The notes beneath the pieces are model-generated. The model searched no databases and was not told the origin of the DNA. It worked only from the letters and a program-made list of their open reading frames with translations. DNA of 64,000 nt from a bacterium (GTDB taxonomy: Bacteria; Patescibacteriota; Minisyncoccia; Sungbacterales; SURF-37). This document shows, piece by piece, positions 12,048 through 38,078 of the stretch; the first letter of the stretch is position 1, and every line of letters begins with the position of its first letter. A program made the position numbers and the translations under genes. Location of the stretch: contig JAUSHI010000009.1 in NCBI GenBank assembly GCA_030648055.1, forward strand, positions 47,722-111,721. The letters run 5' to 3'.

Positions 12048-12102
12048 TATACCAAGATTATAGCGGGCCCGCGATGGGTTTTTTGGCATAGTGATGACTT
12101 TT

Positions 12103-13401: not shown

Positions 13402-13413
13402 GGAGGCCGTCGT

Positions 13414-14391
13414 TTAATTGTTGGTACTTGTCATGAGATTTAATATTTCCCGAATAAAATCTTCTTTTTGCGGAAGAGCGTACTTGCCGAAGCCATAAGG
13501 AATAGGAACATTTGCGGCCCCCAATTTTATAATTTTTATATCTGGACACGAACTCCGCGCGATATTTTCTATAATCGGGTAAAGTCCTCCTCCGGCCAGC
13601 GGTTCTTCGTCGGCAATAAGCAGCCTTTTTGTTTTACGGGAAGTTTCTTTTATTTTTTCTGTATCAAGGGGTTTAAGGCTGACTAAATCTAAGATTTCCA
13701 CATCTACGCCTTGTGTTTTCAGTTCGTCAGCGGCACTCTCCGCCATATCCGTCATTTGCGCGTGGGTTATTATTGTTACATCTTTGCCGGTTCTTCTGTA
13801 CTCTGCTTTTCCGGACGGGTATTTATAATCGGCATCGGTGGGTTGGCCTAATTTTTTATATAAACCCCAGTGTTCAAGAAAAATAATGACCTTACCCGTT
13901 GAAGTAAAGGCCGTGCGCAAAAGTCCTTGTGCCTGCTGCACTGTGCTCGGCGATATAATCACTACTCCAAGAAAATTAAAAAATTGGGAAATGAAAGGAA
14001 TGGAAAGTTGTCCGCCCACCTTGCCGCCCCCCCAACGCACTCTTATGATTGTTGATGGCATGGTTGTGCGCGTGCACATCATGCTCCATATTCCCGATAA
14101 GAAAATATCAGAAGCGGCAATGGTAATAAGCGTGCCGTGGGCAAACTCTACTATTGGACGAAGTCCCGCTTGCGCGGCCCCCAGAGCAATGCCTACAAAA
14201 AGCTCTTCATTGATAGGCGTTTCTCGTATTCGTTCTTCACCAAATTCATCAATGAATCCTTTGGTAATGCCGTCTCTTCCCCCCCATTTTCCTATGTCCT
14301 CTCCCATTATGAAAAGGCGAGAGTCCTTTCTCATCTCATCATGGAGGACTTCTTTGATTGCCTCGGATATTGTGATGTTATTTGTTGACAT
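13414..14391 (-). CDS. TPP-dependent dehydrogenase E1 component, beta subunit-like (transketolase-like C-terminal fold)
   Basis: E1-beta pattern (MGEDIGKWGG...ETPINEELFVGIALGAAQAGLRPIVEF) over 325 aa. Confidence 0.8.
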   Translation of the reverse strand: MSTNNITISEAIKEVLHDEMRKDSRLFIMGEDIGKWGGRDGITKGFIDEFGEERIRETPINEELFVGIALGAAQAGLRPIVEFAHGTLITIAASDIFLSGIWSMMCTRTTMPSTIIRVRWGGGKVGGQLSIPFISQFFNFLGVVIISPSTVQQAQGLLRTAFTSTGKVIIFLEHWGLYKKLGQPTDADYKYPSGKAEYRRTGKDVTIITHAQMTDMAESAADELKTQGVDVEILDLVSLKPLDTEKIKETSRKTKRLLIADEEPLAGGGLYPIIENIARSSCPDIKIIKLGAANVPIPYGFGKYALPQKEDFIREILNLMTSTNN

Positions 14392-15463
14392 CGGAGTTTT
14401 CCATTAATAGTTCATCTTTAGATAACTCTTTTTGCGCACGCGCCTGGTCAAGGGCCTCTTGTACTTCACGTTCTGCCTTTTTTTCCAATACAGAAAGAGA
14501 AGCTTCGTCGGCAATATTATGTGCAATAATTTTTTTTCGCGTTGAAAGAACGGGGTCTGTCTGCTCTTTGTTGGCGGTGTCCAGAAAATTATTATCCAAC
14601 GTGTCCGACATAAAAAAAGCTTCGTGTGGTACACGCCTATAAGTTTTTATTTCTAAAAAAGCCGGAGCAGATTCGTGTCTTGTTTTTTCAAACATTTTTT
14701 TTGCTACAGGGAAAACTTTAAATAAGTCATCACCCTCGACGCAGTCGGAAAATAAGCCGATTGATCTCGCCTTTTCAAAATATGGCCTGGCGGTAAGACG
14801 AGACAGCGGTGTTGTTACGGAAAGCTGATTATTTTCGCATACCCAAATAATCGGCAATTTCCAAAGCACAGAAAGATTAAGCGCGCTGTATAATGTTCCT
14901 CGAGAGGCCGCACCGTCTCCGAAGAATATGGCAACGACACGGTCGTCATTAAAAAATCTTGCCGCCACACCCATGCCGACTGCGATTGAAAAACCGTTTC
15001 CCAGCATGCCCCCCTGGGGGAAAACGCCATATTGCGGTAACATAAAATTTATAGGTGAGACGCCTTTACCCATGCAAACGCCAGTTTTTTTACCCAAAAT
15101 TTCTGCGGCGATAGCTCTTAACGGAACACCCTTACTTAGTGCCACAGCAAAACCTCTATAGTAAGGAAGCAGAAAGTCTTTATTCTCTAAAAGTCCGCCA
15201 ACGGCGGCCTGTCCGGCTTCTTGCCCTCTTCCTTCGAAAAAACTTCTTTTTAGGAGCATATTTTTATCAGCCAGCTCCTTGACTTTTATTTCCAAAATTC
15301 TTGCCGTGACCATATGTTCCCACATTTTTAACACTGCTGCCCCTAATTCCGTATTTTTTTTTAAAAAACTATCGTTAAAAAGCGCAGTCTCGTCGTTGTT
15401 GCCATGGTTGCCCCCCCTTTTTTCTTCTGGTAGTGTCATAATATCGGGTTGGTTTATGCGCAA
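14378..15463 (-). CDS. TPP-dependent dehydrogenase E1 component, alpha subunit-like
   Basis: TPP motif FFGDGAASRGTLYSALNLSVLWKLPIIWVCENNQ. It overlaps the beta-subunit gene by 14 nt, consistent with translational coupling. Confidence 0.8.
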   Translation of the reverse strand: MRINQPDIMTLPEEKRGGNHGNNDETALFNDSFLKKNTELGAAVLKMWEHMVTARILEIKVKELADKNMLLKRSFFEGRGQEAGQAAVGGLLENKDFLLPYYRGFAVALSKGVPLRAIAAEILGKKTGVCMGKGVSPINFMLPQYGVFPQGGMLGNGFSIAVGMGVAARFFNDDRVVAIFFGDGAASRGTLYSALNLSVLWKLPIIWVCENNQLSVTTPLSRLTARPYFEKARSIGLFSDCVEGDDLFKVFPVAKKMFEKTRHESAPAFLEIKTYRRVPHEAFFMSDTLDNNFLDTANKEQTDPVLSTRKKIIAHNIADEASLSVLEKKAEREVQEALDQARAQKELSKDELLMENSDVNK

Positions 15464-15498
15464 ACCCCTAAATAATTTATAGAAACAACTATATAATT

Positions 15499-16245
15499 AT
15501 GTTTTTAGCAGATTCTTTAAAATATATTTCGGCCGATTTTTATGAAAAGACTGTTGGTACGCCGCTGGAAAAAAAATCAATAATGAGGGTTGCGCAAATT
15601 GTGCGGGCCAGGGCGCTTGAAGGAAGCAAAAAAAACGTTCTTGACATAGGTTGTGGAAGCGGTGTGCTCGCCGTAGAATTGGCCGACATTAAAACAATAG
15701 AATATATCGGTATAGATATCAATGAAGGGTTTATAAAGAGGGCTCGGGAGCGATTAAATTCTCATCATAATTTTACCTTTTTCGTAGAGGATATAGCGCG
15801 ATATTGCCCGAATCTTAAATTTGATATAATTATTCTTTGCGGCACCTATCATCATATTCCGGACGAGCATAAAGCCGTTGTGCTACGGCGGGTTGCAAGC
15901 GTTCTTGCGGAAAGAGGCATCGTGGTTTTATATGAAAAATTGCTTGCTCCGTATTCCACAAAAAAAGAGTTTATTTCCGCAAATAGGATTTTTTATAGAA
16001 AAAGATTTGCTGCTCAATTTCTCGCCGGAGAAATAGGACCCCGGCATCTATTGGCCCTTCTAAAAATAGGTTTAGGGGATATATCTGCGTTTCAGGAATA
16101 TAAGATTGATTATCAGCGCCTCATCTCATATTTTTTTTCGCACGGGCTTGTACCTGTTGAAGAACACAAGATCTGGCCAGCAAGAAATTTATTCAAAAAA
16201 AATAATATCGGCGATTTTATTTTTGTATTTGCACATGGAAATTAA
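15499..16245 (+). CDS. Class I SAM-dependent methyltransferase
   Basis: Motif I VLDIGCGSGVLAVELA. Confidence 0.7.
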   Translation: MFLADSLKYISADFYEKTVGTPLEKKSIMRVAQIVRARALEGSKKNVLDIGCGSGVLAVELADIKTIEYIGIDINEGFIKRARERLNSHHNFTFFVEDIARYCPNLKFDIIILCGTYHHIPDEHKAVVLRRVASVLAERGIVVLYEKLLAPYSTKKEFISANRIFYRKRFAAQFLAGEIGPRHLLALLKIGLGDISAFQEYKIDYQRLISYFFSHGLVPVEEHKIWPARNLFKKNNIGDFIFVFAHGN

Positions 16246-17008
16246 ATTTCATAATAAAATAATACTAGTTACCGGATCAACGCGTGGTATCGGGAAAGAA
16301 ATTGCCCGAGCATTTGGAGAGGCCGGGGGCAACATCATTATTAATTCCAGGCGGGAAGAGGCGGTTGAGGATACGGTAGATGAATTTAGAAAGTCCGGTT
16401 ATCAGGCTGTCGGTTACGCCGCGGATGTCGGCAGTTGGGATTCGGTTAAAAAACTCATGGAATTTATAGGAGCGACACACAAACGTCTGGATGTGATCGT
16501 TAATAATGCGGGAATCAGTTTTCCTTTGGCGGGCGTTAGTGAAATGGCGGTGGAAGATTGGGATAATATCTTGAAGACAAATCTTAGCGGTCCGTTCTTT
16601 GTCGCTAAAGCGGGGCTTCCACTCATGCAGTATGCCGGTGGAGGAAGTATAATTAATATAGGTTCCATGGCTTATCTCCTACAGATAGGATCGCCTAATC
16701 CAGCATATAGCGCCGCTAAGGGCGGATTAGTTTCTCTTACCAAAGCTTTGGTTAAGGATTGCTCGCCTCATAAAATTCGCGTAAATGCGATCAGTCCCTG
16801 GTATGTAAAAAATGATAAATTTGATGATATTTTTAAAAAAGCAGGAATTGACCAGAATTATGCGGCCGAACGGAATCCATTAGGCAGGACCGCTTTACCG
16901 GCAGATATTTCCAGTTTGGCGTTATTTCTGGCTTCAGACCACGCGTCGTTTATTAGCGGTCAAGTAATTCATGTTAGCGGAGCGGCAGAGGTTTTGATTA
17001 GAAAATAA
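16235..17008 (+). CDS. Short-chain dehydrogenase/reductase (SDR)
   Basis: VTGSTRGIGKEIA glycine motif and SDR topology over about 257 aa. The start is taken at the internal ATG 16235, which overlaps the upstream stop. Confidence 0.8.
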   Translation: MEIKFHNKIILVTGSTRGIGKEIARAFGEAGGNIIINSRREEAVEDTVDEFRKSGYQAVGYAADVGSWDSVKKLMEFIGATHKRLDVIVNNAGISFPLAGVSEMAVEDWDNILKTNLSGPFFVAKAGLPLMQYAGGGSIINIGSMAYLLQIGSPNPAYSAAKGGLVSLTKALVKDCSPHKIRVNAISPWYVKNDKFDDIFKKAGIDQNYAAERNPLGRTALPADISSLALFLASDHASFISGQVIHVSGAAEVLIRK

Positions 17009-17039
17009 TTTTTATAAAATCTTTTGGAGTTATTATAGT

Positions 17040-18140
17040 TTGATTAATAATGCCATGGAAGACGTAAAAATTTTGCTTGCATTATTGCGGGTGATAATAG
17101 GACGGGATTATTTTTTCCCCACAAGCAAAACAATAAAAAATTTTGAAACCGCTTTTGCAACGCTAGTCAGTTCTGCACACGCATTCGGTGTTTCTAACGG
17201 AACTGATGCGCTAATAATGGCTCTGAAGGCCTGCGGTATACAGGCGGGTGATGAAGTAATTGTCCCGGCTTCAGGTTTCATTGCAACCGCCTCGTGTGCC
17301 GCATGGATCGGCGCGAGGCCGGTATTTGTAGATATTGATTTCCGCACTTTTAATATTAATCCCTCTCTTATAGAAAATTATATTACTATTAAAACAAAAG
17401 CAATTATTGTTACGCACCTCAATGGCAGAATGGCGGACATGGATAAAATTTCTGCTATTGCAAAAAAACATAACCTATTCCTTATAGAAGATGCGGCTCA
17501 GGCTGTAGGTTCAAAATACAGAGGGGAATCAGCGGGGCATTACGGGGACATGGCTTGTTTTAGCTTCAATCCGTCCAAGGCGTTAGCGGCTTATGGAGAC
17601 GGAGGGGCGGTGGTTACAAATAATATTTCTCTTGCGGAAAAAATATCGTTAATGAGAACATACGGCGCCCGTTTTAAGGAAATTTCCGCCCACCATAAAA
17701 TTATAGGCGTAGCGAGCCGTTTGGGGGCGTTGCAGGCCGCTATATTATTGATTAAACTTGAAAATATTTCCTCTGTTATTGAGGCATGGAGACATAATTA
17801 TTTTCTTTATTTTGAGGCGCTTCGCGGTGTTGGTGATTTGATTCTTCCGGAAGTGAGCGATGATTTTTTTATCAACGGTTATCGTTTTGTGGTGCTTACA
17901 AAAAAGAGAAACGATTTACAGCAGTTTTTAAGAAAGAACGGCGTAAATAGTCATATCCAGTACGGAGTTTCAATCCCGTATTTTGAAGCTTTTTCTTATC
18001 TTCAACATAAAAGGGGGGAGTTTCCAGAAAGCGAACGGGTGGCATTCGAAAGCATTGTTCTTCCAACTGCTCCTATTTTTCGAGAAAATGATATTTATCG
18101 CGCAGTGGCGCTTATAAAAAAGTTTTTTGCGAATTTGTAA
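17040..18140 (+). CDS. DegT/DnrJ/EryC1/StrS family PLP-dependent sugar aminotransferase
   Basis: Fold-type I AT pattern with SFNPSKALAAYGDGGAVVTNN (PLP Lys). Confidence 0.85.
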   Translation: MINNAMEDVKILLALLRVIIGRDYFFPTSKTIKNFETAFATLVSSAHAFGVSNGTDALIMALKACGIQAGDEVIVPASGFIATASCAAWIGARPVFVDIDFRTFNINPSLIENYITIKTKAIIVTHLNGRMADMDKISAIAKKHNLFLIEDAAQAVGSKYRGESAGHYGDMACFSFNPSKALAAYGDGGAVVTNNISLAEKISLMRTYGARFKEISAHHKIIGVASRLGALQAAILLIKLENISSVIEAWRHNYFLYFEALRGVGDLILPEVSDDFFINGYRFVVLTKKRNDLQQFLRKNGVNSHIQYGVSIPYFEAFSYLQHKRGEFPESERVAFESIVLPTAPIFRENDIYRAVALIKKFFANL

Positions 18141-18206
18141 AGAATTATTGAGAAGGCGAAATCGGGATCGGTTATACATTTTTTAATTTGACGGTAAAAA
18201 TAAAAG

Positions 18207-19115
18207 ATGATATCAATACATATCAAGCCAAGGTTCTTTAAAACCAAAGGAGCGGCAAAAATGGGAAGTACTCATGGGTTTAATGGGAGTCGGGAAGATG
18301 TTCTAAGAATATGGGAAAAAAATTCGGAAGGGTGGTTTTCTGTCGGTTCTCCTTGGAGGCCGTCCGCCGGCGATGTAAGAGTATATCAAAAATTGTGCGG
18401 TTCAAGGATTAACGGCAGAGTGCTGATTCTTGGTTCTACTTCGGAATTGCGCGAGCTTGTAGCATCGCAACATAATAGTCCGGTTTTGGTAGACATTAGT
18501 TTCGCAATGCTTCAAAAAATGAGTCAGTCATTAACGCATGGCGACCAGGCAAATGAAATATGGATCAAATCTGATTGGTGTGAGGCGCCCCTACGGTCAA
18601 ATTACTTTGATCTTATTATCGGCGATATGGTATGGTGGGTTGTTTCGGTAGATTCACAGTTTAGACTGCGTGACAAAATAGCGGACCTTCTTGCCCCGGA
18701 CGGCATATTTGTTTCACGTTTTCGTCTGATAGGGGCGGGCAACGGACAGCACAATCCGCGCGGAGTGGTAAAGGAGTATTTGGCGAAGTACGAAGCAAAC
18801 CCTGAAAATGAAATTTTGTTGCGGAATGCCATGATGTCGCGGCTTTATGACAGTACTGCCGATGTCGGAACGAAACGTCTTAATCGCGAGAGAGCAAAAG
18901 TGATTTTGTCGGAGGTTTCGGATGGTCTGGATAATTCCAGGCACCGCGCTTTTCTTTCTGCGGCCTCAGAAAGACTTTTGAGCGCTGATTGGACAGCCCA
19001 GACGAGAGAAGAGATTTTTTCCATTTTAGCGGATAAGTTTGAGCTTTTTTCAGAGATGCACGCAACTGATTATGAGTCAGAATATTATCCAATAGTTTCA
19101 TTTAAGAAAAAATGA
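18207..19115 (+). CDS. Hypothetical protein with a methyltransferase-like Rossmann fold and a degenerate SAM loop
   Basis: VLILGSTSE replaces GxGxG. Post-I (LVDIS) and motif III-like (LLAPDGIFV) elements are present. Confidence 0.35.
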   Translation: MISIHIKPRFFKTKGAAKMGSTHGFNGSREDVLRIWEKNSEGWFSVGSPWRPSAGDVRVYQKLCGSRINGRVLILGSTSELRELVASQHNSPVLVDISFAMLQKMSQSLTHGDQANEIWIKSDWCEAPLRSNYFDLIIGDMVWWVVSVDSQFRLRDKIADLLAPDGIFVSRFRLIGAGNGQHNPRGVVKEYLAKYEANPENEILLRNAMMSRLYDSTADVGTKRLNRERAKVILSEVSDGLDNSRHRAFLSAASERLLSADWTAQTREEIFSILADKFELFSEMHATDYESEYYPIVSFKKK

Positions 19116-20485
19116 GCTTAAAGTGGTTTGCTAAAAAAATTATAATTTCAGCTCCTTTTTCTGTGGAGTATTCTTCGGAATATGTTCCATCTATTATCAA
19201 ATCAACCGCCAAAAGGGTTGATTTTTTATTGCAAAATTGGGCCTTGACCCAATCTGATTCTTTTTCCGGGGAAGAATGGCGTAAAATTCAGCTTATTAAA
19301 CTGAAGAAATTGTTGATTCATGCCAGAGAGGGTGTGCCTTCTTGGGATGATCTTTTTAAAAAGATCGGTTTTATTCCAGAAAAATTTGAACGATTTGAAG
19401 ACTTGCGACACATTCCGGTGATTACCCGCGCCGATATAAAAAAAATCCCGATTGAAGCTCTTACTGCCAAAAACATTCCTCGCTGGCGTTTTAAAGAAGC
19501 AGTGACATCGGGTTCTACAGGAGAGCCGCTGAAATTTTTTCAAGACCTCCGCGATAACTTACGGCGAGAGGTAAACACCTTTCATGAATTAAGATACGCT
19601 GGTGTTTCTTATCGCGATAATATAGTGGTATTGGATTTGGATAAGCATAATGATTTGAACAATTTCGGCAAGCGATTCAGCAGTATTGAGTGGGGCGACA
19701 GCAAATTCAGGCAATCCGTCATTTACCCTTATCTGAAATTAAAGCCGGCGGTGCTTATCGCCAACGGAAGCAATTTGAGAAGATTTTTATTTTTAATCCG
19801 GCAGGAAGCTCCAGACACAATTTTTAAAACTTTAATGTACCGGGGCGAGCACATAAGCAAGTCGGAGCGTAATAATATTTCCCGATTTTTTAAATGTCCA
19901 ATTTTTACCTGTTACGGCAGTCGGGAAACTTCACTTTTAGGAATTGAATGCGAATATCACAAATTACATTTAGCGCCGTGGATGAGTTATTTTGAAGTTG
20001 TATCGGACAGCGAACAAACCGTCCCCGAAGGCGATGAAGGCAATGTGGTTGTAACTTTTTTTGAAAATTTTGTTATGCCGTTTATGAGGTATAAAATTGG
20101 CGATAGGGCGATAATAAATACCGAATCGTGTTCTTGCGGCCGAAAATCAAAAACAATTAATTTTTTTGGGCGGGAGTCGGAATTTATTAAATTTCCGGAT
20201 TCCAATAAAAGCTTATCAATTCTTAGTTTGACGCGTCGCGTCGATGAAAATTATTGTAATAGTATTGGGCAGTATCAGTTTGAATTGATAGGCGAAAGGC
20301 TGATAGTATTTCGTTACGTTCCAGTTTCAGCAGTAAATGAAACGGAAAAGAATAATTTAAGCGGTTTGCTGGAAAAGGCTTTGGGGCATCAGTTTCGCAT
20401 TGTGCTGGAAGAAGTGGCGGCAATAAATCCATTAGCCGACGGCAAAACCCCAATTTTAATAAGAAATAAGCCGCGCAATTTGTAA
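19112..20485 (+). CDS. PaaK/CapK-like adenylate-forming enzyme, paralog 2
   Basis: TSGSTGEP motif. The overall architecture is collinear with the 12103..13401 product. Confidence 0.75.
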   Translation: MSLKWFAKKIIISAPFSVEYSSEYVPSIIKSTAKRVDFLLQNWALTQSDSFSGEEWRKIQLIKLKKLLIHAREGVPSWDDLFKKIGFIPEKFERFEDLRHIPVITRADIKKIPIEALTAKNIPRWRFKEAVTSGSTGEPLKFFQDLRDNLRREVNTFHELRYAGVSYRDNIVVLDLDKHNDLNNFGKRFSSIEWGDSKFRQSVIYPYLKLKPAVLIANGSNLRRFLFLIRQEAPDTIFKTLMYRGEHISKSERNNISRFFKCPIFTCYGSRETSLLGIECEYHKLHLAPWMSYFEVVSDSEQTVPEGDEGNVVVTFFENFVMPFMRYKIGDRAIINTESCSCGRKSKTINFFGRESEFIKFPDSNKSLSILSLTRRVDENYCNSIGQYQFELIGERLIVFRYVPVSAVNETEKNNLSGLLEKALGHQFRIVLEEVAAINPLADGKTPILIRNKPRNL

Positions 20486-20684
20486 CGCCATGAATGAATT
20501 ATTTCTAAAACTAAAAATTATCAACGCCTTGGCCAGAATTGTCTTGAAGGGGGAAAATACCGGAGATTTTATGTTAGGCAAGCCGGTCCAGATTTTTGAA
20601 CGATCTTTATTTGATTAAGTTTTAATCCCACGAGAACGAGTGTCTCATCCTTCTGACTAATTATTTATTAACAAAAGAAAATAT

Positions 20685-21658
20685 ATGTCAATAGCAGGAC
20701 CTCAATACTCCATAGTTATTCCAACTTATAATCGCGCCAAAACTCTCGCTTTAACCCTAAATTCTGTTTGCCAACAAACCCTTTCGCCTGAAAAATATGA
20801 GATCTTGGTGGTTGATGACGGATCATCGGATAACACTAAAGAAGTTGTTTTACATATCCAAAAAAATATTCTCACTGCGGTATCCTTTATTTCCATGAAC
20901 AAACCGGCGGTCCCGCTAAGGCCAGGAACTTGGGCATCAAAGAATCCAAAGGCGAAATTATATTTTTTACCGATGACGACTGCATAGTGCCGCCGGACTG
21001 GATGGCAACGCTTTTAGACGGATATAAGAGACATACGGAGGTTGTCGGGGTGGGGGGATGGCATATACCGCCGGATGGAGAACTTGAAAAAAGCGCTACC
21101 TCGCGATATACCCATTATGAAAGTTTTTATCACGACCGTTTTAACCAATCTCTTATATTTTATGAGGTTTTGACTAATAATCCTGTTATGTTTTTTGGAA
21201 CTTTCGCTTATAACACGGCGAATATATGCTATAAAAAGGAAATATTGCGAAAGGTCGGCGGTTTCAAAGAAGATTTTTACTGGCCCGGAAGCGAAGATAA
21301 CGACCTTGCCTTTAGAGTCGCGCAAGCCGGGTACTGTCTGCTTTATCTGCCATTTAATGTAATCCATTCAAAAGCCATGAATTTGTTAGAATTTATGAAA
21401 CTCCATTTCCGCCGAGGGGCCAATGGTTACTTTTTGCGTACTATGCATGTTGATATTCTCAAAAAACAAAACCCCGGATTTATTAAAGATTATGGTTCGA
21501 TAAAATATTTTATCCATCATCTCAATGGTCCGGAAAAGTTTTTGGCATTTTTGGAATGGCTTAGTTTAAACGCTGGCATTATGTATATGAAAAATAAATT
21601 AACCGAACGCGACAAGCCAGTACTTTCCAAACCAGAGGAAAAAATTAGTAACGATTGA
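20685..21658 (+). pseudogene. GT2 family glycosyltransferase, interrupted by a -1 frameshift at an A7 tract (~20859-20865)
   Basis: ORF 20685..20987 carries IVIPTYNRAKTL...LVVDDGSSDNT. The next frame carries FHEQTGGPAKARNLGIKESKGEIIFFTDDDC. Changing A7 to A8 fuses them into one intact GT2. Confidence 0.6.
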
Positions 21659-22720
21659 AACAAAAGAAAAGCGGACCATGTCCGGAATGGACTTTGAAAA
21701 TAAAGGCGGTTGGCTTCTGCTTGTAAAAATAATTTTGGAATCGTTTATGGTCCGTTTTAAAAAAAATAAAAAATCTGGGTTTTGGCGAATATCCGGATGC
21801 AGTAAATATAGAAAATGCCAATCTAAGCCCTGAAGAAGGCACTTTTTTATGTGAATGCCAAGCGAAAAATCCGCGAAATGCTTTACCATTTTCGGTTCGT
21901 ATAAAAGTTTTAATCCTAATTTACGCGCTCTTATTTTAAATTCCATAAAGCCGACATGCTTAAAATACGGATTGAATCCGCCCAACTTTTCAAAAATTTC
22001 TCTACGGTAGCAAACATTGGCGGTTAAGCCGCATTGATTATTTAGAATATCAAAGTTTTTTGTGCGAACATGCGTGCGGTAAAAATGCTTCCACATTGTA
22101 AACCGGTGATAAATATCAAGGGGGGGTTTTATCGGCCAAGGTTCTTTAAATCCGCCGACTCCGGCGATTTCCGGGTTGGCTTCCAGTTCTCGCTTGAATT
22201 CAAAAAGCCAGTCTGGCGGGACAATACAGTCGTCGTCGGTAAAGGCGAGCAAATTTCCCTGCGAATTTAAAACGGCGACATTTCGCGCTAAATCGGCGCC
22301 GTAATTTTTTTTTAATTTGATATAAACCATACTCGTCTGTCTATTTTGATCCGCAAAATCCTCCACCGCTTTTTCGGTCTTATCTTTTGAACCGTTATCA
22401 ATTATTACTATCTCAAATTCATCCAAAGAAATATTCTTCTGCCCTATTACGGCGTTAACGGTTTTTAAAAGCAGGTCGCGGCGATTATAAGTTGGAACGA
22501 TTATACTAAATAGAACAACGTTTTTTTTATTAGAGCCGAATTTTGTGACATTCTCAATGTAAGAAGTATAATCATCGCGCAAAAAATTGTTATCCTCGGG
22601 AGGAGTTTCCCCGTAAAAAAATTCAATCAGTTCACGATAGGAGGTATTGTCCTGCTCTATACGACAAATAATGCGCAGAGTTTTTAAAAAATTAGACGAC
22701 ATGTTGATAATAACTTTCAT
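21599..22720 (-). CDS. GT2 family glycosyltransferase
   Basis: FSIIVPTYNRRDLL...VIIDNGSKDKT and ...FTDDDCIVPPDW. There is an N-terminal extension of about 65 aa. Confidence 0.8.
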   Translation of the reverse strand: MKVIINMSSNFLKTLRIICRIEQDNTSYRELIEFFYGETPPEDNNFLRDDYTSYIENVTKFGSNKKNVVLFSIIVPTYNRRDLLLKTVNAVIGQKNISLDEFEIVIIDNGSKDKTEKAVEDFADQNRQTSMVYIKLKKNYGADLARNVAVLNSQGNLLAFTDDDCIVPPDWLFEFKRELEANPEIAGVGGFKEPWPIKPPLDIYHRFTMWKHFYRTHVRTKNFDILNNQCGLTANVCYRREIFEKLGGFNPYFKHVGFMEFKIRARKLGLKLLYEPKMVKHFADFSLGIHIKKCLLQGLDWHFLYLLHPDIRQNPDFLFFLKRTINDSKIIFTSRSQPPLFSKSIPDMVRFSFVSIVTNFFLWFGKYWLVAFG

Positions 22721-23567
22721 AATCTTCTTTTAATCCTGAAAATAAAGGTTGAAATTTTAATCCCAGCGCTTTAATTTTGCTGTTGTCGCATATCATATTT
22801 TCATTGGCAAAAGGGAACTCTTCTTTGTCAAAATTTTTTCCGGCGGCAGGCGGATTGAACCGCAAAACTGGATCCTTACCGGAGATTTTTCCCATCATCT
22901 TCACCAAATCAATAAGTGTTATTGTTTCGTCTCCGGCGCAGTTAAATGCGCCGACAGCGCGTTTTTCCGCAATCGCCGCGATTGCTTCGGCTACTTCTTC
23001 GGCAAACACAAATTGAATTTTGGCTTGACCATCGCCTGGTAAAATAAGCGGCCGGTTATTTTGAATTCGTGTATAGATAAAGCGTTCGCGGTTCTGATAA
23101 TTTTTTGGTCCTAAAATATAGACCGGACGAAACGAGGCATATTTTATTCCGCTTTCTTCAAGAACTTTTTCGCACCCAGCCTTGCCCCTGCCGTAGTTGC
23201 CCCAAATCGGCCAATCGCCTACGGGAGAAAGTTCGGTTAATGGAAACAAATGGGGTTTTTTATAAACCGCGGCGGTGCTAAAATGTAAAAAGAAGTCAAA
23301 ACGCAATTCCCGTATAGCGTTTTCGGTTTGCGCTTCGCTGTAAGCGCACATATCTATCACTGTATCAAAGCGCTCTTTCAGATTGTATCCTCTGTTTCTG
23401 TCACCTGTTACAAAACGCGCTTTCGCCGGATATTCTAACTGTATCAATCCGCGATTAAATATAGTTAAATTATGTCCGCGGTTTAACAGAAGTTCTACGA
23501 GATAGGGCCCCACAAAACGCGAGCCGCCGATTATTAAAATATTTTGCTTGTCAGGAGAGGTCATCAT
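22692..23567 (-). CDS. NAD-dependent epimerase/dehydratase (extended SDR)
   Basis: ILIIGGSRFVGPYLVELLLNRGH Rossmann motif. Confidence 0.8.
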   Translation of the reverse strand: MMTSPDKQNILIIGGSRFVGPYLVELLLNRGHNLTIFNRGLIQLEYPAKARFVTGDRNRGYNLKERFDTVIDMCAYSEAQTENAIRELRFDFFLHFSTAAVYKKPHLFPLTELSPVGDWPIWGNYGRGKAGCEKVLEESGIKYASFRPVYILGPKNYQNRERFIYTRIQNNRPLILPGDGQAKIQFVFAEEVAEAIAAIAEKRAVGAFNCAGDETITLIDLVKMMGKISGKDPVLRFNPPAAGKNFDKEEFPFANENMICDNSKIKALGLKFQPLFSGLKEDYESYYQHVV

Positions 23568-23573
23568 ATCATT

Positions 23574-23664
23574 GTGTATAACACATTTGCCAAGACGCTG
23601 AAAATAGTTGTATTATTATAGTGTATAACACATTTGCCAAGACGCTGAAAATAGTTGTATTATT
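23574..23664. repeat. Perfect tandem direct repeat, 2 x 44 bp separated by 3 bp, each unit promoter-like (TTGCCA-18-TATTAT)
   Basis: gtgtataacacatttgccaagacgctgaaaatagttgtattatt occurs at 23574..23617 and again at 23621..23664, in the divergent intergenic region between the epimerase and ORF 23695. Confidence 0.85.
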
Positions 23665-23694
23665 GTAAATATAAAAAATAAATTTTTAACTATT

Positions 23695-25149
23695 GTGAAA
23701 AACCTTTTTAATTCTCTTAAGTTTATTTTTAGAGCGTTTCTTTTAGTTATTATCTTACTGTTTGGCTGGGCGTTTATTAATGTCGCCAATTTAATCAAGG
23801 GCAAAAAAACGCCGGACAAAGATTCTTTGTCCGCCAACCCGTTTGGGGCGGATGAAGCAAGGGCTGACACTCCGGGAGGAGGGGGTTTTTCTTCTTGCCC
23901 TTTTCTCGCTTGTTTTAATGGAAAAGAATACAAATTAGAAAATGATATTCTTTTTGGAAGACCAAAGAGCTACTGGCCTACATACGAAACAGCCAAAGCC
24001 ATGTACGAAGATGGCCGTATAAGCCCCGATCTTTACAAAATCACCAGCCCAATAAGGCCCCATAATAATAAATTGCTTTTTCAAATTCAGGAAATAGAAC
24101 CGGAAGAAAGTTTCTTTAAGCAACTTCGTTTAAAAAGAGTTTTACATCCCCAAAATACGGAAGTCATCGTGGACTCTGAATTTAAGAAGTATTACGTTCT
24201 CCCCCAAACCGAATTTCTAAAAAGCATTATTCTTCCATCGCTTGTAAAAAATGCTGATAAAAAAGATGTGGCGGTAAGTTTTAGTTTAGGCCGGGTCTTT
24301 GTAAGCGATACGGAAGGGGACGATGGAATTAAATTTCAAAAAAACGAAGAGTTTTATTTTTATTTTAAAGACCTAAATCCTAAAGAGACTTCCCATCTTT
24401 TACTGTCTTCATTTAATCGTGACTGGCAGTTAGGATATCAAGAAGAATGGGTTGCCAACCCCCAGTTTAATATTCGCGCACTTATTAGCCGTTTAGATTT
24501 TGCGCGTGTTGGGGTCGGAGTCGCGTTACTAATTGGTGCTTGGATATCGGGAAAATGGGGTTCTGTTGCGACCGCTGCGGTATTGAGCCCTTTTTTTATC
24601 GGAGCAGGGCAAGCGGGTTGCTCATTTATAATTGAATATAAAGATAGGGACGAAACCTATTCAAGAGTAGCGGTTACTGAAGCAAGGGCATGGAAATACA
24701 ATACGGAAATTATTGAAATTCCTCGGGACAGTATTACGCCAAGTGGTGAGCTTGAGTTAAGAATAAAGTCGTCAAAAAGACATGTTCTTGGTTTCGCTGG
24801 GATATCTCAAAAAATAGAGTCGCTTAATAATAAAAATTATCAAGAAGAAATATTACCGTTAATTACAGCCGAGCATAGTAGATTACGAAAAGACGTTTCG
24901 GGCGACCTTAAGAGTAGAGAGGGATCGTATGTTCATACAATACCGGGCGATACGATTAATCTTGAGTTTAGTGTTCCGGAAAGTTTGGTTTCCGATGAAA
25001 ACAAGGAAACATATCTTATTCAGTCATCCGGTTTTTACACATCCCTTAGGCCGGAAAATATGAAGCTCGCCGGCAATTGGAAAGAAAAAATCTCTCAAGA
25101 GGCAAAAGAACGTCTTGAAAAACTTGTTTCGCTAAGTTCTTATAAATAA
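23695..25149 (+). CDS. Hypothetical membrane/extracytoplasmic protein (N-terminal TM plus an internal hydrophobic segment), unknown function
   Basis: GTG start, TM helix FLLVIILLFGWAFINVANLI. No recognisable catalytic motifs. Confidence 0.4.
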   Translation: MKNLFNSLKFIFRAFLLVIILLFGWAFINVANLIKGKKTPDKDSLSANPFGADEARADTPGGGGFSSCPFLACFNGKEYKLENDILFGRPKSYWPTYETAKAMYEDGRISPDLYKITSPIRPHNNKLLFQIQEIEPEESFFKQLRLKRVLHPQNTEVIVDSEFKKYYVLPQTEFLKSIILPSLVKNADKKDVAVSFSLGRVFVSDTEGDDGIKFQKNEEFYFYFKDLNPKETSHLLLSSFNRDWQLGYQEEWVANPQFNIRALISRLDFARVGVGVALLIGAWISGKWGSVATAAVLSPFFIGAGQAGCSFIIEYKDRDETYSRVAVTEARAWKYNTEIIEIPRDSITPSGELELRIKSSKRHVLGFAGISQKIESLNNKNYQEEILPLITAEHSRLRKDVSGDLKSREGSYVHTIPGDTINLEFSVPESLVSDENKETYLIQSSGFYTSLRPENMKLAGNWKEKISQEAKERLEKLVSLSSYK

Positions 25150-25174
25150 ATTTATTTTTAGTTTAGATATTGCT

Positions 25175-26251
25175 ATGAAAGAATGGCTAATAAATAAAAA
25201 GTTTATTGTAATTTTAGTAGCTTTAGCGGTTTTGTTTTTGGCCGCTTTTTGGGGGGCGCGCTTTGCCGCTTCTTATTATTACGAAAAAGGCGCGGGGATG
25301 TTTTTACAAAATAATTTTGAAGCTGCTAAAAGTAACTTTACCACGTCTTTAATATTTAATTCTAAAAATCCCAAAACCCATTATTTTCTCGGGAAAATAG
25401 CTTTAGGCCCGCCAGTACCCAGACAACTTGTTTACCATCCTCGGGCCGATTATAAAGAAGCGGTTAAACATTACGACAAAGCGATGTTATTCGGTCTTGA
25501 GCAAAAAAACCAGAATTTATATAAAGTCGCTCTTGATGATTTAGGCAACGCGTATTGGAATTTAAATGAGCTGGACAAGGCGCGCGAAAAATATTCTGAA
25601 AAATTATCAAAATTTCCAGAATCATCTTTTTGGGCGAGGTATTTTATCGCGTGGGACGACTTTTACCGTCTTAACAAGCCAGAAGAGGCTTTAGAAATAT
25701 TGCCGACCACTTTAAGTATTACAATGTCAGACAACGATAGATGGAATCTTTTTAGAATTCATGTGCTTTTATCTCGTCTCAATTTATATTTTGGCAATTA
25801 CGCCAACGCCATAAAATACGCCAAATTGGTTATTGAAAATGTTGAGCCCGAAAACAAATATGAAGGAATTCAGGCCGCTCATGCGCTTTTAGCAGTTGAT
25901 TATGGCCGCCAGAAAAATTTTTCTTTAGCCGAAGGCGAAGTAAAAAAGGCCAACGATTTAGCTGGAGTGATCGGCGCTTACAATTGTTCTCTCGCAGTGG
26001 CTTATATCAGCGGTGAAAATTATCTCAAAGCAATTTTAATAGCCGAAAAAACGGATAAGACCGCTCTGACTTATATAAATTCTCTCTGTATTCAGTCTTT
26101 GGCTATTTCTTATTTAGCGAAAGGCGACAAAATTAACGCCAAGAAGTATCTTGAAGAGTATTTGAATTTTACTGAAAAATTATCGGAAAAAAATATTTTT
26201 GTAATGCGCAATCGCCAACAATTTTCTGACGAGCTTTTGAAATTAAAATGA
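25175..26251 (+). CDS. Membrane-anchored TPR-repeat protein
   Basis: N-terminal TM followed by multiple TPR-like helix pairs (AxxxYxxAl...). Confidence 0.6.
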   Translation: MKEWLINKKFIVILVALAVLFLAAFWGARFAASYYYEKGAGMFLQNNFEAAKSNFTTSLIFNSKNPKTHYFLGKIALGPPVPRQLVYHPRADYKEAVKHYDKAMLFGLEQKNQNLYKVALDDLGNAYWNLNELDKAREKYSEKLSKFPESSFWARYFIAWDDFYRLNKPEEALEILPTTLSITMSDNDRWNLFRIHVLLSRLNLYFGNYANAIKYAKLVIENVEPENKYEGIQAAHALLAVDYGRQKNFSLAEGEVKKANDLAGVIGAYNCSLAVAYISGENYLKAILIAEKTDKTALTYINSLCIQSLAISYLAKGDKINAKKYLEEYLNFTEKLSEKNIFVMRNRQQFSDELLKLK

Positions 26252-27039
26252 CTTATTTAAAAACTAAAAAAGGGCCTCTCTGGTTTTCAATCGGAGCAGT
26301 GGTTATTTTTTCATTTTTTCTTTCACGGGACAGCTTAGCTCGTTTTGCTTGGCAAAAATACCACAGCGCAAATCTCGCGTTTTTTTTAGATCACGGCGAT
26401 GCTGATTTAGCTCTTAAAATAGGCAATTACTATTTTAATGTTTATAAAGACGGTGTGTATGACCTTAATAAGGCGAAAAAATATTTTAATAAAGCGCTGG
26501 AAATTGACCCTAAAACGCCGGATGCCTGGCATCAGCTAGCAAGAATTGATTTTTTGAAAGGCGATTTTACTTTGGCTCTTGAAAAAATAAATAAACAAAT
26601 AGAAATCCACGGCGACTCGTTCATGGCATCTTTTTATATTCGCGGACTTATTGAGGGGTACGCCGGCGACTTTGATCAAGCCGAAAAAGATTTTAAAAAG
26701 TTCATTGAATGGGACCGGCAGAATTGGGCGGCCCTAAACGATCTTGCTTGGATTTATTTTAAAAAAGGCGATTACAAAAATGCCGAAAATATGGCAGAAA
26801 TCGGCCTTAAAATTGCCCCTCAAAATCCATGGCTTTTAACGGTTTTTGGCGTATCTATGCTCAACCAAAACCAAAAAGAAGAAGCTAAAAAAGCCTTTAT
26901 TCAGGCTAAAATCAATGCCAATTTATTAACGGAAGCGGACTGGCACAAAGCCTATCCAGGCAATGATCCTAAATCGGCGGGAAAAGGCCTTGAATCAATG
27001 AAAAAGATAATTGAATCTGACTTAAGTCTTATCCAGTAA
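26248..27039 (+). CDS. Membrane-anchored TPR-repeat protein
   Basis: N-terminal TM plus TPR units. It overlaps the upstream gene by 4 nt (ATGA). Confidence 0.6.
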   Translation: MTYLKTKKGPLWFSIGAVVIFSFFLSRDSLARFAWQKYHSANLAFFLDHGDADLALKIGNYYFNVYKDGVYDLNKAKKYFNKALEIDPKTPDAWHQLARIDFLKGDFTLALEKINKQIEIHGDSFMASFYIRGLIEGYAGDFDQAEKDFKKFIEWDRQNWAALNDLAWIYFKKGDYKNAENMAEIGLKIAPQNPWLLTVFGVSMLNQNQKEEAKKAFIQAKINANLLTEADWHKAYPGNDPKSAGKGLESMKKIIESDLSLIQ

Positions 27040-27116
27040 AATAAATTGTGTGAATAAATTAATTGTGGTTTACCCGCTATTTAATATATGATAGTTATAT
27101 GAGCTTTAATTTTAAA

Positions 27117-27743
27117 ATGACAAAAGAGGTTGTCCGTTTAGGAACGGTGCTGATTATTTTACTTTTAATTCTAAGCCTCGGCCAAATTAAAGGAAAAGTC
27201 GCTTACTTAGATACGGAATCCATTGAAACCGGCCAGTCTTTTGTTCAAACCGGCCCCGGAATCGGCGCTGTTATTCCGGCATCCTGTCCTTCTTACGCAC
27301 ATTGGGAGAGCGAATGTTGGCAACCTCCGGCTCCGGAGCCGGCACCACCTTCAGAGCCATCGCCTCCTCCACCCCCTCCTCCACCTCCCTCGCCCCCACC
27401 CCCTCCTTCAGCGCCGGTTATTGGACCTGGCTCAGGCGGCGGTAGCGGAGGTGGCGGAGGTGGCGTTGGCGGTGGCGGTGGAGCAGGAAGTTTTACCGTA
27501 ACTCCTACTGGTTCAATTAACCCCGGTGAATCGGCAACACTTTCATGGACGACAAGCAATGCAACTTCATGCTCTATTGACCAAGGGATTGGCGGAGTGC
27601 CCATAAACGGGAGCACAATTGTAAGTCCAATGACAACAACGACATACACTCTGACCTGCTCCGGCCCCGGAGGAGCGGCGCAGGCCACGGCGACGGTTAC
27701 TGTTTCCGGAATACCGCATTTTGAAGAAGTGGTGCCGGAGTAA
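27117..27743 (+). CDS. Cell-surface protein with a Pro-rich linker, a Gly-rich linker and a C-terminal Ig-like/PKD-like beta domain
   Basis: TM/signal segment VVRLGTVLIILLLILSLG. PPAPEPAPPSEPSPPPPPPPPPSPPPPPS, then GSGGGSGGGGGGVGGGGGAG, then SATLSWTTSNATSCS...TYTLTCSG. A start at 27117 is preferred. Confidence 0.5.
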   Translation: MTKEVVRLGTVLIILLLILSLGQIKGKVAYLDTESIETGQSFVQTGPGIGAVIPASCPSYAHWESECWQPPAPEPAPPSEPSPPPPPPPPPSPPPPPSAPVIGPGSGGGSGGGGGGVGGGGGAGSFTVTPTGSINPGESATLSWTTSNATSCSIDQGIGGVPINGSTIVSPMTTTTYTLTCSGPGGAAQATATVTVSGIPHFEEVVPE

Positions 27744-27754
27744 ATCCAAAGGCA

Positions 27755-27795
27755 AAACCATCCCTCCGCATTCATGCGGAGGGATGGTTTTGGAT
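27755..27795 (+). terminator. Strong rho-independent terminator (16-bp stem)
   Basis: aaaccatccctccgca-ttca-tgcggagggatggttt followed by a T-run. Confidence 0.7.
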
Positions 27796-27890
27796 TCAAG
27801 AGTCTCATAACCATAAACATTTCAGCATAAATTCCCGTTAAATGTGCTATCGCTTGCTAAAACGGCATTTGTTAGCTACTGTCAAACGTA

Positions 27891-28469
27891 ATGGGACGAG
27901 GTAAAGATATAAAACCCAGATTGGGCCCAGTGATGCAGAAAATATTGCTACTCTTGGCCGGAGGTTCTGCGCTCGGGCTTTCTCGGAGGCCCGATACTTA
28001 TTTTCGAATTCTCAGAGGCATCACAAAGGAATGGCGGGCAATAGAACGGCGGCGCCTTCACGAGGCAATAAGAAATCTTTATAGTTCACAGTTGGTTGAC
28101 TGCCGAGAGCATCCCGATGGCACGGCCTCTTTGGTGTTGACCAATAGTGGTAAGGAGCGAGTGCTACATTATGATCCCGAGGCGATAAAAATAAAGCGCC
28201 CTAAACGGTGGGATGGTTTGTGGCGGGTTGTTATGTTTGATATTCCCGAGCTCCAGAAACGAGCGCGCGACGCGCTTTCATTTAAATTAAGACAGATCGG
28301 TTTTTATCCAATGCAAAAGAGCGTGTTTGTACATCCGTACGATTGTAAAGATGAAATAGATTTTCTTATTGAATTCCATCAGGTTAGACCGCACGTGAGA
28401 TTTTTATTGGTAAAAGAAACTGACATCGATTTGAAACTAAAACAGCATTTTCACATTAATATGTTATGA
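27891..28469 (+). CDS. PaaX-like putative transcriptional regulator (N-terminal wHTH-like plus PaaX C-terminal domain)
   Basis: MQKILLLLAG...LVLTNSGKERVL resembles the PaaX N-domain. The C-terminal VVMFDIPE...QKSVFVHP segment is PaaX-C-like. Confidence 0.4.
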   Translation: MGRGKDIKPRLGPVMQKILLLLAGGSALGLSRRPDTYFRILRGITKEWRAIERRRLHEAIRNLYSSQLVDCREHPDGTASLVLTNSGKERVLHYDPEAIKIKRPKRWDGLWRVVMFDIPELQKRARDALSFKLRQIGFYPMQKSVFVHPYDCKDEIDFLIEFHQVRPHVRFLLVKETDIDLKLKQHFHINML

Positions 28470-28516: not shown

Positions 28517-28600
28517 TGGGCGAGGAGGGAGTTGAACCCTCATGAGCTTGCGCTCGCAGGATTTTGAGTCCTGTGCGTCTGCCAGTTCCGCCACTCGCCC
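28517..28600 (-). tRNA. tRNA-Leu (anticodon CAA), type II with long variable arm
   Basis: The reverse complement folds as GGGCGAG / TG / GCGG-AACTGGCAGA-CGC / A / CAGGA-CTCAAAA-TCCTG / long variable arm / GAGGG-TTCAACT-CCCTC / CTCGCCC-A. This is near the E. coli tRNA-Leu pattern. No encoded CCA. Confidence 0.88.
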
Positions 28601-30760: not shown

Positions 30761-32509
30761 CTATGCCAATTTATAGTTTATTTCTTCAACTCCGTTTACT
30801 TTTTTGAGGCGAAAAATTAATTTTTCCAGAGAGGGCTTGGTCTTAACCGAAATCTGGATGACTATCAGTGGATACAGGCGGTTCTTCGTCTCGCTGGTAA
30901 CGCTTTTCATGTTTATTTTTTGATCGGAAATAACTTGAGAGACGTCTTTTAAGAGTCCTATGCGGTCTTTTATGTTTAATCGGAGCTCCACGGAAGAGCC
31001 TGTTTTTTTGGCAAACGCAAAATGTTCCCGTCCTTTTCTAATTGATGTGGTTATTTTTTTACGCGCTCCAGAGGTTTTTACGAACTCAAGCCAGTCTTGG
31101 TTTGGCCTTTTATTTTTTTGAGTAAGAATTTCAACAACATCCCCCGATGAAAGGCGGTAGTCAAGCGATACCATTTTGGAGTTAACCTTGGCACCCGCGG
31201 CAGTGTCTCCAATTGTTGAGTGAACCTGGTAGGCAAAATCAACCGGCGTTGCTCCTTCTGGGAGGTCAAGAACCTCGCCCTTGGGCGTGAAGACAAAGAT
31301 GCGGTTTTTGAAAAAATCAATTTTTAACGATTCAAGAAATTCTTCCGGATTTTGAAATTCTTTGTGCCATTCTCTTAATTGCTGGACCCAGGCCAGATTT
31401 TTATTACGGGCAATTCCGCTGAAAGATGGAGTATTTTTTGGCGATTCGGTTTTGGCTTCCGAATACGCCCAGTGGGCGGTAATTCCATTTTCTGCCTCTT
31501 GGTGCATTTCCAGCGTTCTGATTTGGAATTCCGTCATTTTGCCTTCGGGGCCGAATATCGTGGTGTGAAGCGAGCGGTAGCCGTTGGGTTTGGGAATGGC
31601 GATATAATCTTTGATACGCCCCGGGATTGGTTTCCAAAGTTTGTGGATGGCGCCCAGTGTTTTGTAGCAATCCTCAATATTTTTTACGACAACACGCACG
31701 GCGATTAAGTCGTGGATTTTATCTATATCCATGCCGTGGGCGAGAAGTTTTTTATAAAGGGAGTAATAGTGTTTTGCCCGCGCGTGGATATCAATCGGAT
31801 AAAGGCCTTCTTTAGAAAATTCATTTTTTACGACTGGAATCAGGCGTTCAATATAATTTTTCCGGTCTTCAAATGTGTCTTTTGTGTGGTCTTTAAGCCA
31901 GCTATGTTCTTGGGGGTAAATATAAGGAAAAGCGAGGTCTTCAAGCTGACCTTTTGTCTCGCCGATTCCGAGCCGGTAGGCAAGGGGCGCGTAAATTTCA
32001 AGAGTTTCAAGCGCTATACGGCGCTTCTTTTCGGGCGCTACGTGTTCAAGCGTTTCCATGTTATGTTGGCGGTCGGCAAGTTTTATTAAAACCACCCTTA
32101 TATCTTCAGCCACAGCCAGAAACATTTTTCTTAAGTTTTCCGCGTTTCGTTCAGTACCTTTGTAGCGGATTTGGTCAAGTTTTGTCACACCCTCAACAAG
32201 AAAAGCGATTTCGTCGCCGAAATTTTTTCTTATGTCGTCAATTGTGCGCTCGGTGTCTTCAACGGTGTCGTGCAGAAGTCCGGCCGCTATCGTCTCTTTG
32301 TCCAGTTTCATGTTGGTAAGTCTCTCCGCGACCGCAAGCGGGTGCACTATATAGGGCTCGCCTGATTTTCTTTTCTGGTCTTTGTGGGCCTCTGTTGCGA
32401 ATTCATACGTGCGTTTTATCAACGCCAAATTAGCTTCGGCATGCCCCGTTTCGCGCATCTTTTTCAGAATATCGTTTAAAATTTTATCGTTCGTTCTCTT
32501 TACATCCAT
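30761..32509 (-). CDS. rel: Bifunctional (p)ppGpp synthetase/hydrolase (RelA/SpoT homolog)
   Basis: HD domain (HPLAVAERL...LHDTVEDT), RelA/SpoT synthetase domain, and TGS and ACT-like C-terminus. Confidence 0.9.
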   Translation of the reverse strand: MDVKRTNDKILNDILKKMRETGHAEANLALIKRTYEFATEAHKDQKRKSGEPYIVHPLAVAERLTNMKLDKETIAAGLLHDTVEDTERTIDDIRKNFGDEIAFLVEGVTKLDQIRYKGTERNAENLRKMFLAVAEDIRVVLIKLADRQHNMETLEHVAPEKKRRIALETLEIYAPLAYRLGIGETKGQLEDLAFPYIYPQEHSWLKDHTKDTFEDRKNYIERLIPVVKNEFSKEGLYPIDIHARAKHYYSLYKKLLAHGMDIDKIHDLIAVRVVVKNIEDCYKTLGAIHKLWKPIPGRIKDYIAIPKPNGYRSLHTTIFGPEGKMTEFQIRTLEMHQEAENGITAHWAYSEAKTESPKNTPSFSGIARNKNLAWVQQLREWHKEFQNPEEFLESLKIDFFKNRIFVFTPKGEVLDLPEGATPVDFAYQVHSTIGDTAAGAKVNSKMVSLDYRLSSGDVVEILTQKNKRPNQDWLEFVKTSGARKKITTSIRKGREHFAFAKKTGSSVELRLNIKDRIGLLKDVSQVISDQKINMKSVTSETKNRLYPLIVIQISVKTKPSLEKLIFRLKKVNGVEEINYKLA

Positions 32510-32546
32510 GTGGCATTATTGTATTCTTTGACGCGCGTTTTTTCAA

Positions 32547-32679
32547 CCCCGTAGTAGAACGCGGCATAGCGCCTTTAATTTTTTGGCAGTAAAATGTTTT
32601 GTCAGAAAAATTGTATGTGCGGCATCGGTTTTTTATTTAATTATGCGCAAAAAATATTATGCCGCGTTTCACTACGGGG
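32547..32679. repeat. Family C inverted-repeat element, copy C1 (22-bp arms ccccgtagtagaacgcggcata / tatgccgcgtttcactacgggg with a 90-bp loop)
   Basis: Arms are complementary with 2 mismatches. Arm sequence is related to the other CCSGGTAGTGAAA-motif sites. Confidence 0.6.
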
Positions 32680-32758
32680 TCAATCCTTGACCGGTTTATG
32701 GCATTGCATTAGTATTGTTTAGGAATAAGTTCGTTAAAAAATTAAATAAAGAAAGAGG

Positions 32759-37905: not shown

Positions 37906-37944
37906 GTTTATTTAGATATAAGCGAGTTTTCAATTTAGCGCAAA

Positions 37945-38078
37945 CCCGGTAGTGAAAAGTGGCATGGTATTTCTTGCGCGCGAGCAGCTCGTTAGATCAA
38001 TCCGGCATTTATCTTGTTTTAGATAATAGCATTTTATTCGGGGGAATGCGGCATCTTGCCATTTTCTACTAACGGGGT
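37945..38078. repeat. Family C inverted-repeat element, copy C3 (arms cccggtagtgaaaagtggcatgg / ...ttgccattttctactaacgggg)
   Basis: Imperfect 25-35-bp arms lie upstream of the MoxR gene. The left arm contains CCCGGTAGTGAAAA. Confidence 0.55.

Follow-up and report, generated by a model that had tools for sequence, protein, structure and literature searches.

The window analysed here (the whole 64-kb stretch of 64,000 nucleotides) stems from an uncultured groundwater-type Parcubacteria-type member of the Candidate Phyla Radiation (CPR) and contains two operons that diverge from a common spacer of 127 bp (80 + 47). The minus-strand operon (21599–23567) consists of a gene for an NAD-dependent epimerase/dehydratase (22692–23567), whose ORF has an ATG at 23567 and a second ATG at 23564, and a gene for a family-2 glycosyltransferase (21599–22720). 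The plus-strand operon (23695–27039) starts with a GTG at 23695 and encodes a 484-amino-acid membrane protein (23695–25149) followed by two TPR proteins (25175–26251 and 26248–27039). A fourth gene on the plus strand (27099–27743) encodes a Pro/Gly-rich protein and is likely to start at ATG 27099, not at TTG 27063 of the longest ORF. The divergent arrangement around an intergenic region, with exactly these start codons of the epimerase and membrane protein genes, had been described in an initial annotation of this DNA and was borne out.

The 484-amino-acid protein has no Pfam match. Its AlphaFold model (pLDDT 82) shows a membrane helix at the N-terminus and a pair of beta-sandwich domains, and a Foldseek search of the model against the PDB returned just weak jelly-roll matches (E > 1e-3). 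The closest homologues share 73–77% identity with it, and those that carry a name are from assemblies of Candidatus Sungbacteria, Azambacteria and the 'Parcubacteria group'. Given the membrane helix, the beta-sandwich domains and the TPR proteins, the surface role that the initial annotation had tentatively assigned to the segment 23695–27743 is plausible. The accompanying view of this segment as a single operon fared less well because the fourth gene is preceded by a box-plus-promoter module of its own (see below); 23695–27743 is therefore probably not one simple transcription unit. Within the fourth gene, positions 27363–27481 hold short CCT/CCA and then GGC/GGT repeats encoding Pro-rich and Gly-rich runs, which could be slippage-prone. 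The stretch from about 12000 to 28000, with its glycosyltransferase, epimerase and membrane/TPR genes, has a G+C content of 0.39–0.42 compared with 0.45–0.49 elsewhere in the window, and it looks like a variable envelope-glycan region. A tRNA-Leu(CAA) gene is located at 28517–28600 (minus strand) between a PaaX/Cas2-like gene and parA-parB, and genes for FtsA, FtsZ, topoisomerase I, DprA and RelA/SpoT are found further along the window.

Most of the spacer is taken up by a tandem repeat. The 44-mer GTGTATAACACATTTGCCAAGACGCTGAAAATAGTTGTATTATT occurs on the plus strand at 23574–23617 (copy 1; distal to the 484-amino-acid protein gene and proximal to the epimerase gene) and again at 23621–23664 (copy 2), with 44/44 identical positions and the trinucleotide ATA (23618–23620) between the copies, as had been stated in the claim of a perfect 44-bp tandem duplication with a 3-bp gap. 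Tandem Repeats Finder reports the array at 23567–23664 with a period of 47, 2.1 copies and a score of 182, by far the strongest in the 64 kb, where the next-best arrays score 65 or less. When up to three mismatches are allowed, the 44-bp unit has only these two matches in the window as compared with 0.00 expected from 100 shuffles. The ATA junction sets the 47-bp period, and in the head-to-tail reading the copies are identical at 46/47 positions, the single misfit base lying at the junction (23618 A versus 23665 G, or 23573 T versus 23620 A). The zero divergence noted previously consequently applies to the 44-bp core and not to the junction. With regard to the absolute recency of the duplication, the junction is imperfect, and gene conversion may be another source of the identity between the copies.

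Two relatives share the gene order of the window, that is, glycosyltransferase and epimerase genes on one strand and genes for a 482- or 484-amino-acid protein and TPR proteins on the other, at 73–74% protein identity (L003, Logan SRR22387992; L004, ENA k141_969666); for L003 the synteny of the divergent operon is identical. Each of them has one copy of the unit, in spacers of 81 bp (L003) and 89 bp (L004), whereas the window has two copies in 127 bp and hence a spacer that is longer by exactly one period (80 + 47). From this difference in copy number and spacer length we infer that the promoter-bearing unit was not only tandemly duplicated, as initially proposed, but that the duplication is derived in the lineage of the window. 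Every more distant locus likewise has one copy, and no direct repeats longer than 9 bp were present in the 250 bp upstream among the 14 other homologous loci; this variation in copy number is one between related genomes of different species, not between strains. For DNA of the same species, exact-protein look-ups with both flanking genes gave no match, and an exact 24-mer of the unit was absent from metagenome contigs. In three more distant relatives (L017, 287–2422; L020, 1–1430; L018, 1021–2439) the epimerase gene is near the gene for the 484-amino-acid protein, with genes for YcaO plus nitroreductase or for a kinase/methyltransferase fusion inserted between them, and the box-plus-promoter module stays with the latter gene.

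Each unit contains the hexamers TTGCCA and TATTAT separated by 18 bp, a 10/12 match to the σ70 consensus that ranks among the best σ70-like sites upstream of genes in the window. The distal promoter-like site, P1 (23587–23616, plus strand; TTGCCA at 23587–23592, TATTAT at 23611–23616), would start transcription near 23623, and the proximal one, P2 (23634–23663, plus strand; TTGCCA at 23634–23639, TATTAT at 23658–23663), near 23670. A start at the latter position would give a leader of approximately 24 nt that is A/T-rich and has no Shine-Dalgarno sequence. In L003 and L004 the 18-bp spacing of the hexamers and a distance of 29–31 nt from the −10 hexamer to the start codon are kept, which agrees with the −35/−10 pair recognized previously; the distance in the window is 31 nt from the −10 hexamer of copy 2 to GTG 23695, and copy 2 has thus retained the ancestral one. 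Identity between the window and these two relatives amounts to 16/17 in the first 17 nt of the unit and 5–6/6 in the −10 hexamer, and falls to 7–9/18 in the 18-bp spacer and to 49–60% at fourfold-degenerate codon sites of the adjacent gene. Conservation of hexamers, spacing and start distance in the face of heavy divergence of the spacer and of fourfold-degenerate sites supports the prediction that the unit is a promoter. A weaker alternative −10 hexamer, TAAATT, is located 10 nt before GTG 23695.

The best-conserved block of the module, TGTGTATAA, is located upstream of the −35 hexamer. It is the reverse complement of TTATACACA and matches the DnaA-box consensus TTATNCACA at 9/9 positions; DnaA is known to act as a transcription factor in addition (PMC4447404, PMC8203912). 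In the window this DnaA-box-like site occupies 23573–23581 on the minus strand, 29 bp upstream of the −10 hexamer of P1 and roughly at −50 to −42. It is only 5 nt away from the epimerase ATG at 23567 (8 nt from the second ATG), and the duplicated piece is therefore likely to serve both divergent operons. The second box, TTATACACT (23620–23628, minus strand), matches at 8/9 positions and falls below the stringent consensus because the junction donates an A in place of the first T of the box, which is a T in 16/16 aligned sites. Copy 1 keeps a perfect box and the promoter-proximal copy 2 has lost an otherwise invariant base. The perfect repeat extends from position 2 of the box through one base beyond the −10 hexamer, and as such covers the predicted functional module of box and promoter almost exactly.

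Conservation of the box reaches far beyond the syntenic relatives. The motif TGTGNATAA is found upstream of the gene for the homologue of the 484-amino-acid protein in 13 of 15 distinct loci, which cover 35–77% protein identity and have varied neighbours, and it is always in the same orientation, 39–75 nt before the start codon (additionally at 122 nt in the case of window copy 1); the remaining two loci have the near-matches TGTGCACAA and TGTGGATAT. The first 103 kb of the fetched loci (L001–L019) contain 19 matches to TGTGNATAA compared with 5.4 expected from shuffles. Fifteen of the 19 are upstream of the homologue gene; of the remaining four, three are located in front of a gene further down the same cluster. 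When 16 sites from promoters of the window and of its relatives are aligned on the box without gaps, eight positions of the box are invariant and position 5, which corresponds to the consensus N, is free (G10 T4 A1 C1). Information also peaks at the TT of the −35 hexamer and at A, T and T of the −10 hexamer, and since the alignment is anchored at the box and ungapped, the distance from the box to the −10 hexamer must be fixed at about 29 bp (28–31). In B. subtilis the regions most strongly bound by DnaA hold more boxes than weaker ones (PMC4447404); the promoters described here have one box each. No dnaA gene was found among the annotated genes of the window. We regard the conserved DnaA-box-like promoter module as being of greater interest than its duplication.

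In the window, perfect matches to TTATNCACA are confined to promoter regions. All five are intergenic although intergenic DNA accounts for only 11.4% of the sequence, whereas sequences with a single mismatch at another box position occur at chance frequency and in 10/10 cases within coding DNA. Apart from the perfect box of copy 1, these matches comprise a box at 3221–3229 upstream of the gene for dCTP deaminase (box, 9 nt, TTGCAA, 17 nt, TATGAT, 9 nt, ATG), one at 6211–6219 upstream of the gene for serine hydroxymethyltransferase, and one at 60766–60774 upstream of a gene for a 300-amino-acid protein that is divergent from ribonucleotide reductase. The box at 6211–6219 ends 13 nt before ATG 6233, which is most likely the start codon of the serine hydroxymethyltransferase gene despite a longest ORF of 6155–7498. 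The fifth belongs to the second box-plus-promoter module (27049–27092, plus strand), in which TGTGAATAA (27049–27057) is followed by 5 nt, TTGTGG, 18 nt, TATGAT and 6 nt to ATG 27099 of the fourth gene; to judge from this spacing the promoter looks leaderless. The occurrence of boxes at nucleotide-supply genes fits with known DnaA regulons (PMC8203912).

Taking these data together, we consider it rather probable that the 47 bp duplicated head to tail in this lineage hold an entire conserved control module, that both resulting promoters fire and that they are subject to the predicted control by DnaA. Its parts are, in order, a DnaA-box-like operator of 9 bp (TGTGTATAA, or TTATACACA when read on the opposite strand), 5 nt, TTGCCA, 18 nt and TATTAT, and in the relatives a single module would drive the operon of the Parcubacteria-specific 484-amino-acid membrane protein and its TPR partners. 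In the duplicated state, P2 has kept its ancestral spacing to the start codon and has a box clipped to 8/9, and P1 is found 47 bp further upstream, with an intact box and directly before the divergent epimerase/glycosyltransferase operon. Both promoters are predicted to fire, from start sites about 47 bp apart. As mutual occlusion of RNA polymerases reaches no further than approximately 35 bp, transcription of the operon should rise, presumably less than twofold. The box would be a site at which DnaA binds to regulate transcription, and its control over the proximal promoter may be looser.

The duplication is likely to have originated by replication slippage or unequal exchange. In the presumed single-copy ancestor, ATTGT both precedes and follows the unit; recombination between these microhomologies predicts a period of 44 bp versus the 47 bp observed. 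Simple models in which either ATT plus the unit or the unit plus GTA was duplicated each need one more base change at the junction. This misfit is a small oddity and no argument against a slippage-type event.

A broader proposal, which we put forward as a speculation of rather doubtful standing, is that TGTGNATAA at 29 bp from a −10 hexamer may mark a putative DnaA regulon in Parcubacteria, tying the envelope operon (484-amino-acid, TPR and Pro/Gly-rich proteins) as well as dcd and glyA to replication status. The copy number of the module might then be an evolvable and possibly phase-variable switch, the clipped proximal copy partly escaping from control.

It is conceivable, if on balance unlikely, that the duplication is real and neutral or transient, a product of slippage that became fixed or dominant with no meaningful change in the expression of either operon. 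The two-copy state is unique among the 15 distinct loci, identical copies are what a young event would give, the proximal box has been damaged and not improved, and close tandem promoters interfere such that the gain can be small (PMC8830795). By contrast, the almost exact fit of the repeat to the module is expected if a second promoter matters and would otherwise be a coincidence, and engineered second copies of promoter repeats alter the phenotype of M. tuberculosis (PMC12817950).

We also attribute a limited chance to the view that TGTGNATAA is the operator of a regulator other than DnaA or, in the form of TGTGTATAA, mainly an extended −10 element (TRTGnTATACA, minus strand) of a leaderless epimerase promoter. 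The minus strand indeed reads TGTG-T-TATACA at a distance of 7 nt from the epimerase ATG, genes that look leaderless, with TANNNT 5–10 nt before their starts, are common in the window, and in L015 and L016 the orthologous epimerase gene is preceded by a −10-like hexamer at 6–7 nt from its ATG. The block is, however, equally conserved where a divergent epimerase gene is missing, and there it takes the form TGTGGATAA, which lacks a −10-like hexamer; for this reason we demote the extended −10 element to a possible secondary use. Moreover, the distance between TATACA and the epimerase ATG varies (7, 10 and 16 nt) and that to the plus-strand −10 hexamer is fixed, and the sole variable position of the block coincides with the N of the DnaA consensus; these points speak against this alternative.

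That the main effect is exerted on the other side of the spacer appears improbable. According to this explanation the duplication uncoupled the divergent promoters and created a new one on the minus strand, with raised expression of the epimerase and glycosyltransferase genes as the consequence. A promoter-like site facing the epimerase gene (TTGGCA-17-AATAAT at 23612–23640, minus strand; 10/12) indeed exists only across the junction, its −35 hexamer being derived from copy 2 and its −10 hexamer from the end of copy 1, and it arises only through the duplication. In the single-copy state, furthermore, the plus-strand −35 hexamer is just about 20 bp away from the epimerase ATG. The minus-strand TTGGCA, however, is kept in neither relative (ACGGCA in L004, TAAGCA in L003), and we interpret it as a by-product of the near-palindromic TTGCCAA.

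An assembly artefact, or a true copy number of one or of more than two, is very unlikely. The source is a metagenome-assembled genome, and the identical epimerase protein (P0064, 100% identity) is listed from only one NCBI metagenome-assembled contig. The junction TATTATT-ATA-GTGTATAA, on the other hand, could hardly have been assembled unless it was present in the reads. Ordinary reads are longer than the 91-bp array and the final k-mers usually exceed the 44-bp repeat, so that the array ought to be resolved unambiguously, and the length difference to the relatives is exactly one period. Finally, we dismiss as most implausible that the repeat, instead of being a promoter, belongs to an origin of replication or an iteron array, or acts as a structured RNA with a regulatory role: DnaA-box-like sequences, A/T-rich DNA and the presence of parA and parB 5–7 kb away would be in line with an origin, but an oriC or DnaA-box cluster was rejected on account of a GC skew that is positive over the entire window with no switch and of too few boxes (two only, and one in the relatives), and a riboswitch or attenuator because the repeat region has no Rfam match and folds no better than shuffled sequence on either strand (z-scores of +1.34 and +0.55).

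The duplication represents a known, textbook kind of regulatory mutation. In the TR34 and TR46 alleles of the Aspergillus fumigatus cyp51A promoter, a segment of 34 or 46 bp with a regulator site is tandemly duplicated and expression is raised; this is an analogy only, as cyp51A involves a eukaryotic promoter, drug selection and a demonstrated effect. Closer counterparts are the promoter tandem repeats (VNTR-type) of M. tuberculosis, which include a 57-bp duplication in the dop promoter and repeats at lpdA and cysG and document that such repeats change expression, in keeping with the initial description of tandem promoters as an established route to altered expression (PMC12817950). Like those, the array in the window is a head-to-tail repeat of an intergenic unit of about 50 bp that has promoter elements and immediately precedes an operon; its copies match completely or almost so, and it presumably arose by slippage or recombination. 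The M. tuberculosis repeats vary in copy number between strains and within cultures, which for lpdA has been shown to change expression, whereas the present array is known from the sequence of one genome alone. Unlike the M. tuberculosis repeats, the unit in the window would also hold an operator and serve two divergent operons. The two putative promoters further resemble natural tandem promoters of E. coli, in that they are co-directional, belong to one operon and have predicted starts more than 35 bp apart. At this distance the E. coli promoters do not occlude each other, and only a polymerase that occupies the downstream one causes interference (PMC8830795). Pairs in E. coli are of old origin and divergent in sequence, in contrast to the window pair, which consists of identical copies made by a presumably recent duplication.

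DnaA-regulated promoters have been described for nrdAB, dnaA and guaBA of E. coli and for the DnaA regulons of B. subtilis and Caulobacter (PMC8203912, PMC4447404). As in these systems, a 9-mer matching TTATNCACA is present in promoter regions only, with companion boxes at the genes for dCTP deaminase and serine hydroxymethyltransferase, and its position just upstream of the −35 hexamer would suit a stabilisation of RNA polymerase. The putative module, with a box known from its sequence, has every feature by which a DnaA-controlled promoter such as that of nrdAB is recognizable at this level. It differs from known DnaA promoters with regard to the CPR host, the main target, which is a lineage-specific membrane/TPR operon, and the presence of just one box per promoter, whose distance is strictly fixed.

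To our knowledge, almost nothing is known about transcriptional regulation in CPR organisms. The duplication amounts to a natural experiment with one versus two copies on a promoter of an uncultured CPR bacterium, and the DnaA-box-like operator, conserved at a fixed distance across 35–77% protein identity, defines a concrete, testable candidate regulon. The box, which is also found upstream of the genes for dCTP deaminase and serine hydroxymethyltransferase, provides a hint of a link between the membrane/TPR operon and the replication cycle.

Several other regulatory signals were noticed in the window. −10-like TANNNT hexamers are enriched at 5–10 nt from start codons (16 of the 45 genes that have a gap upstream; examples are found at the gene starts 52765, 30761–32509 on the minus strand, 3277, 7982, 4658 and 27891), a placement that suggests many leaderless mRNAs. 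In a second set of genes (38–49 kb) the ribosome-binding sites are strong and read AAGGAGG. The sequence GGCGGCTTA..GGGCTGGGTGCTCATGTTTGTAGCTAAATTT..TCGCT..GCTC..AAATTTAGACA, roughly 70 nt long, is a conserved element that occurs at 53470–53545, 55100–55173 and 61085–61166, directly 5′ of the start codons of the genes for histidyl-tRNA synthetase, a HIT-family protein and ribonucleotide reductase; it has no Rfam match at the gathering score. The motif TGCC(g/a)c(g/t)TT(c/t)(t/c)ACTAC(g/c)GGG, which spans about 20 nt, is present in four copies within 32510–32758 and 37906–38122. With one copy per gene in two divergent spacers, between relA/spoT and a queuosine-salvage gene and between dprA and the gene for a MoxR-type ATPase, it is probably a shared operator.
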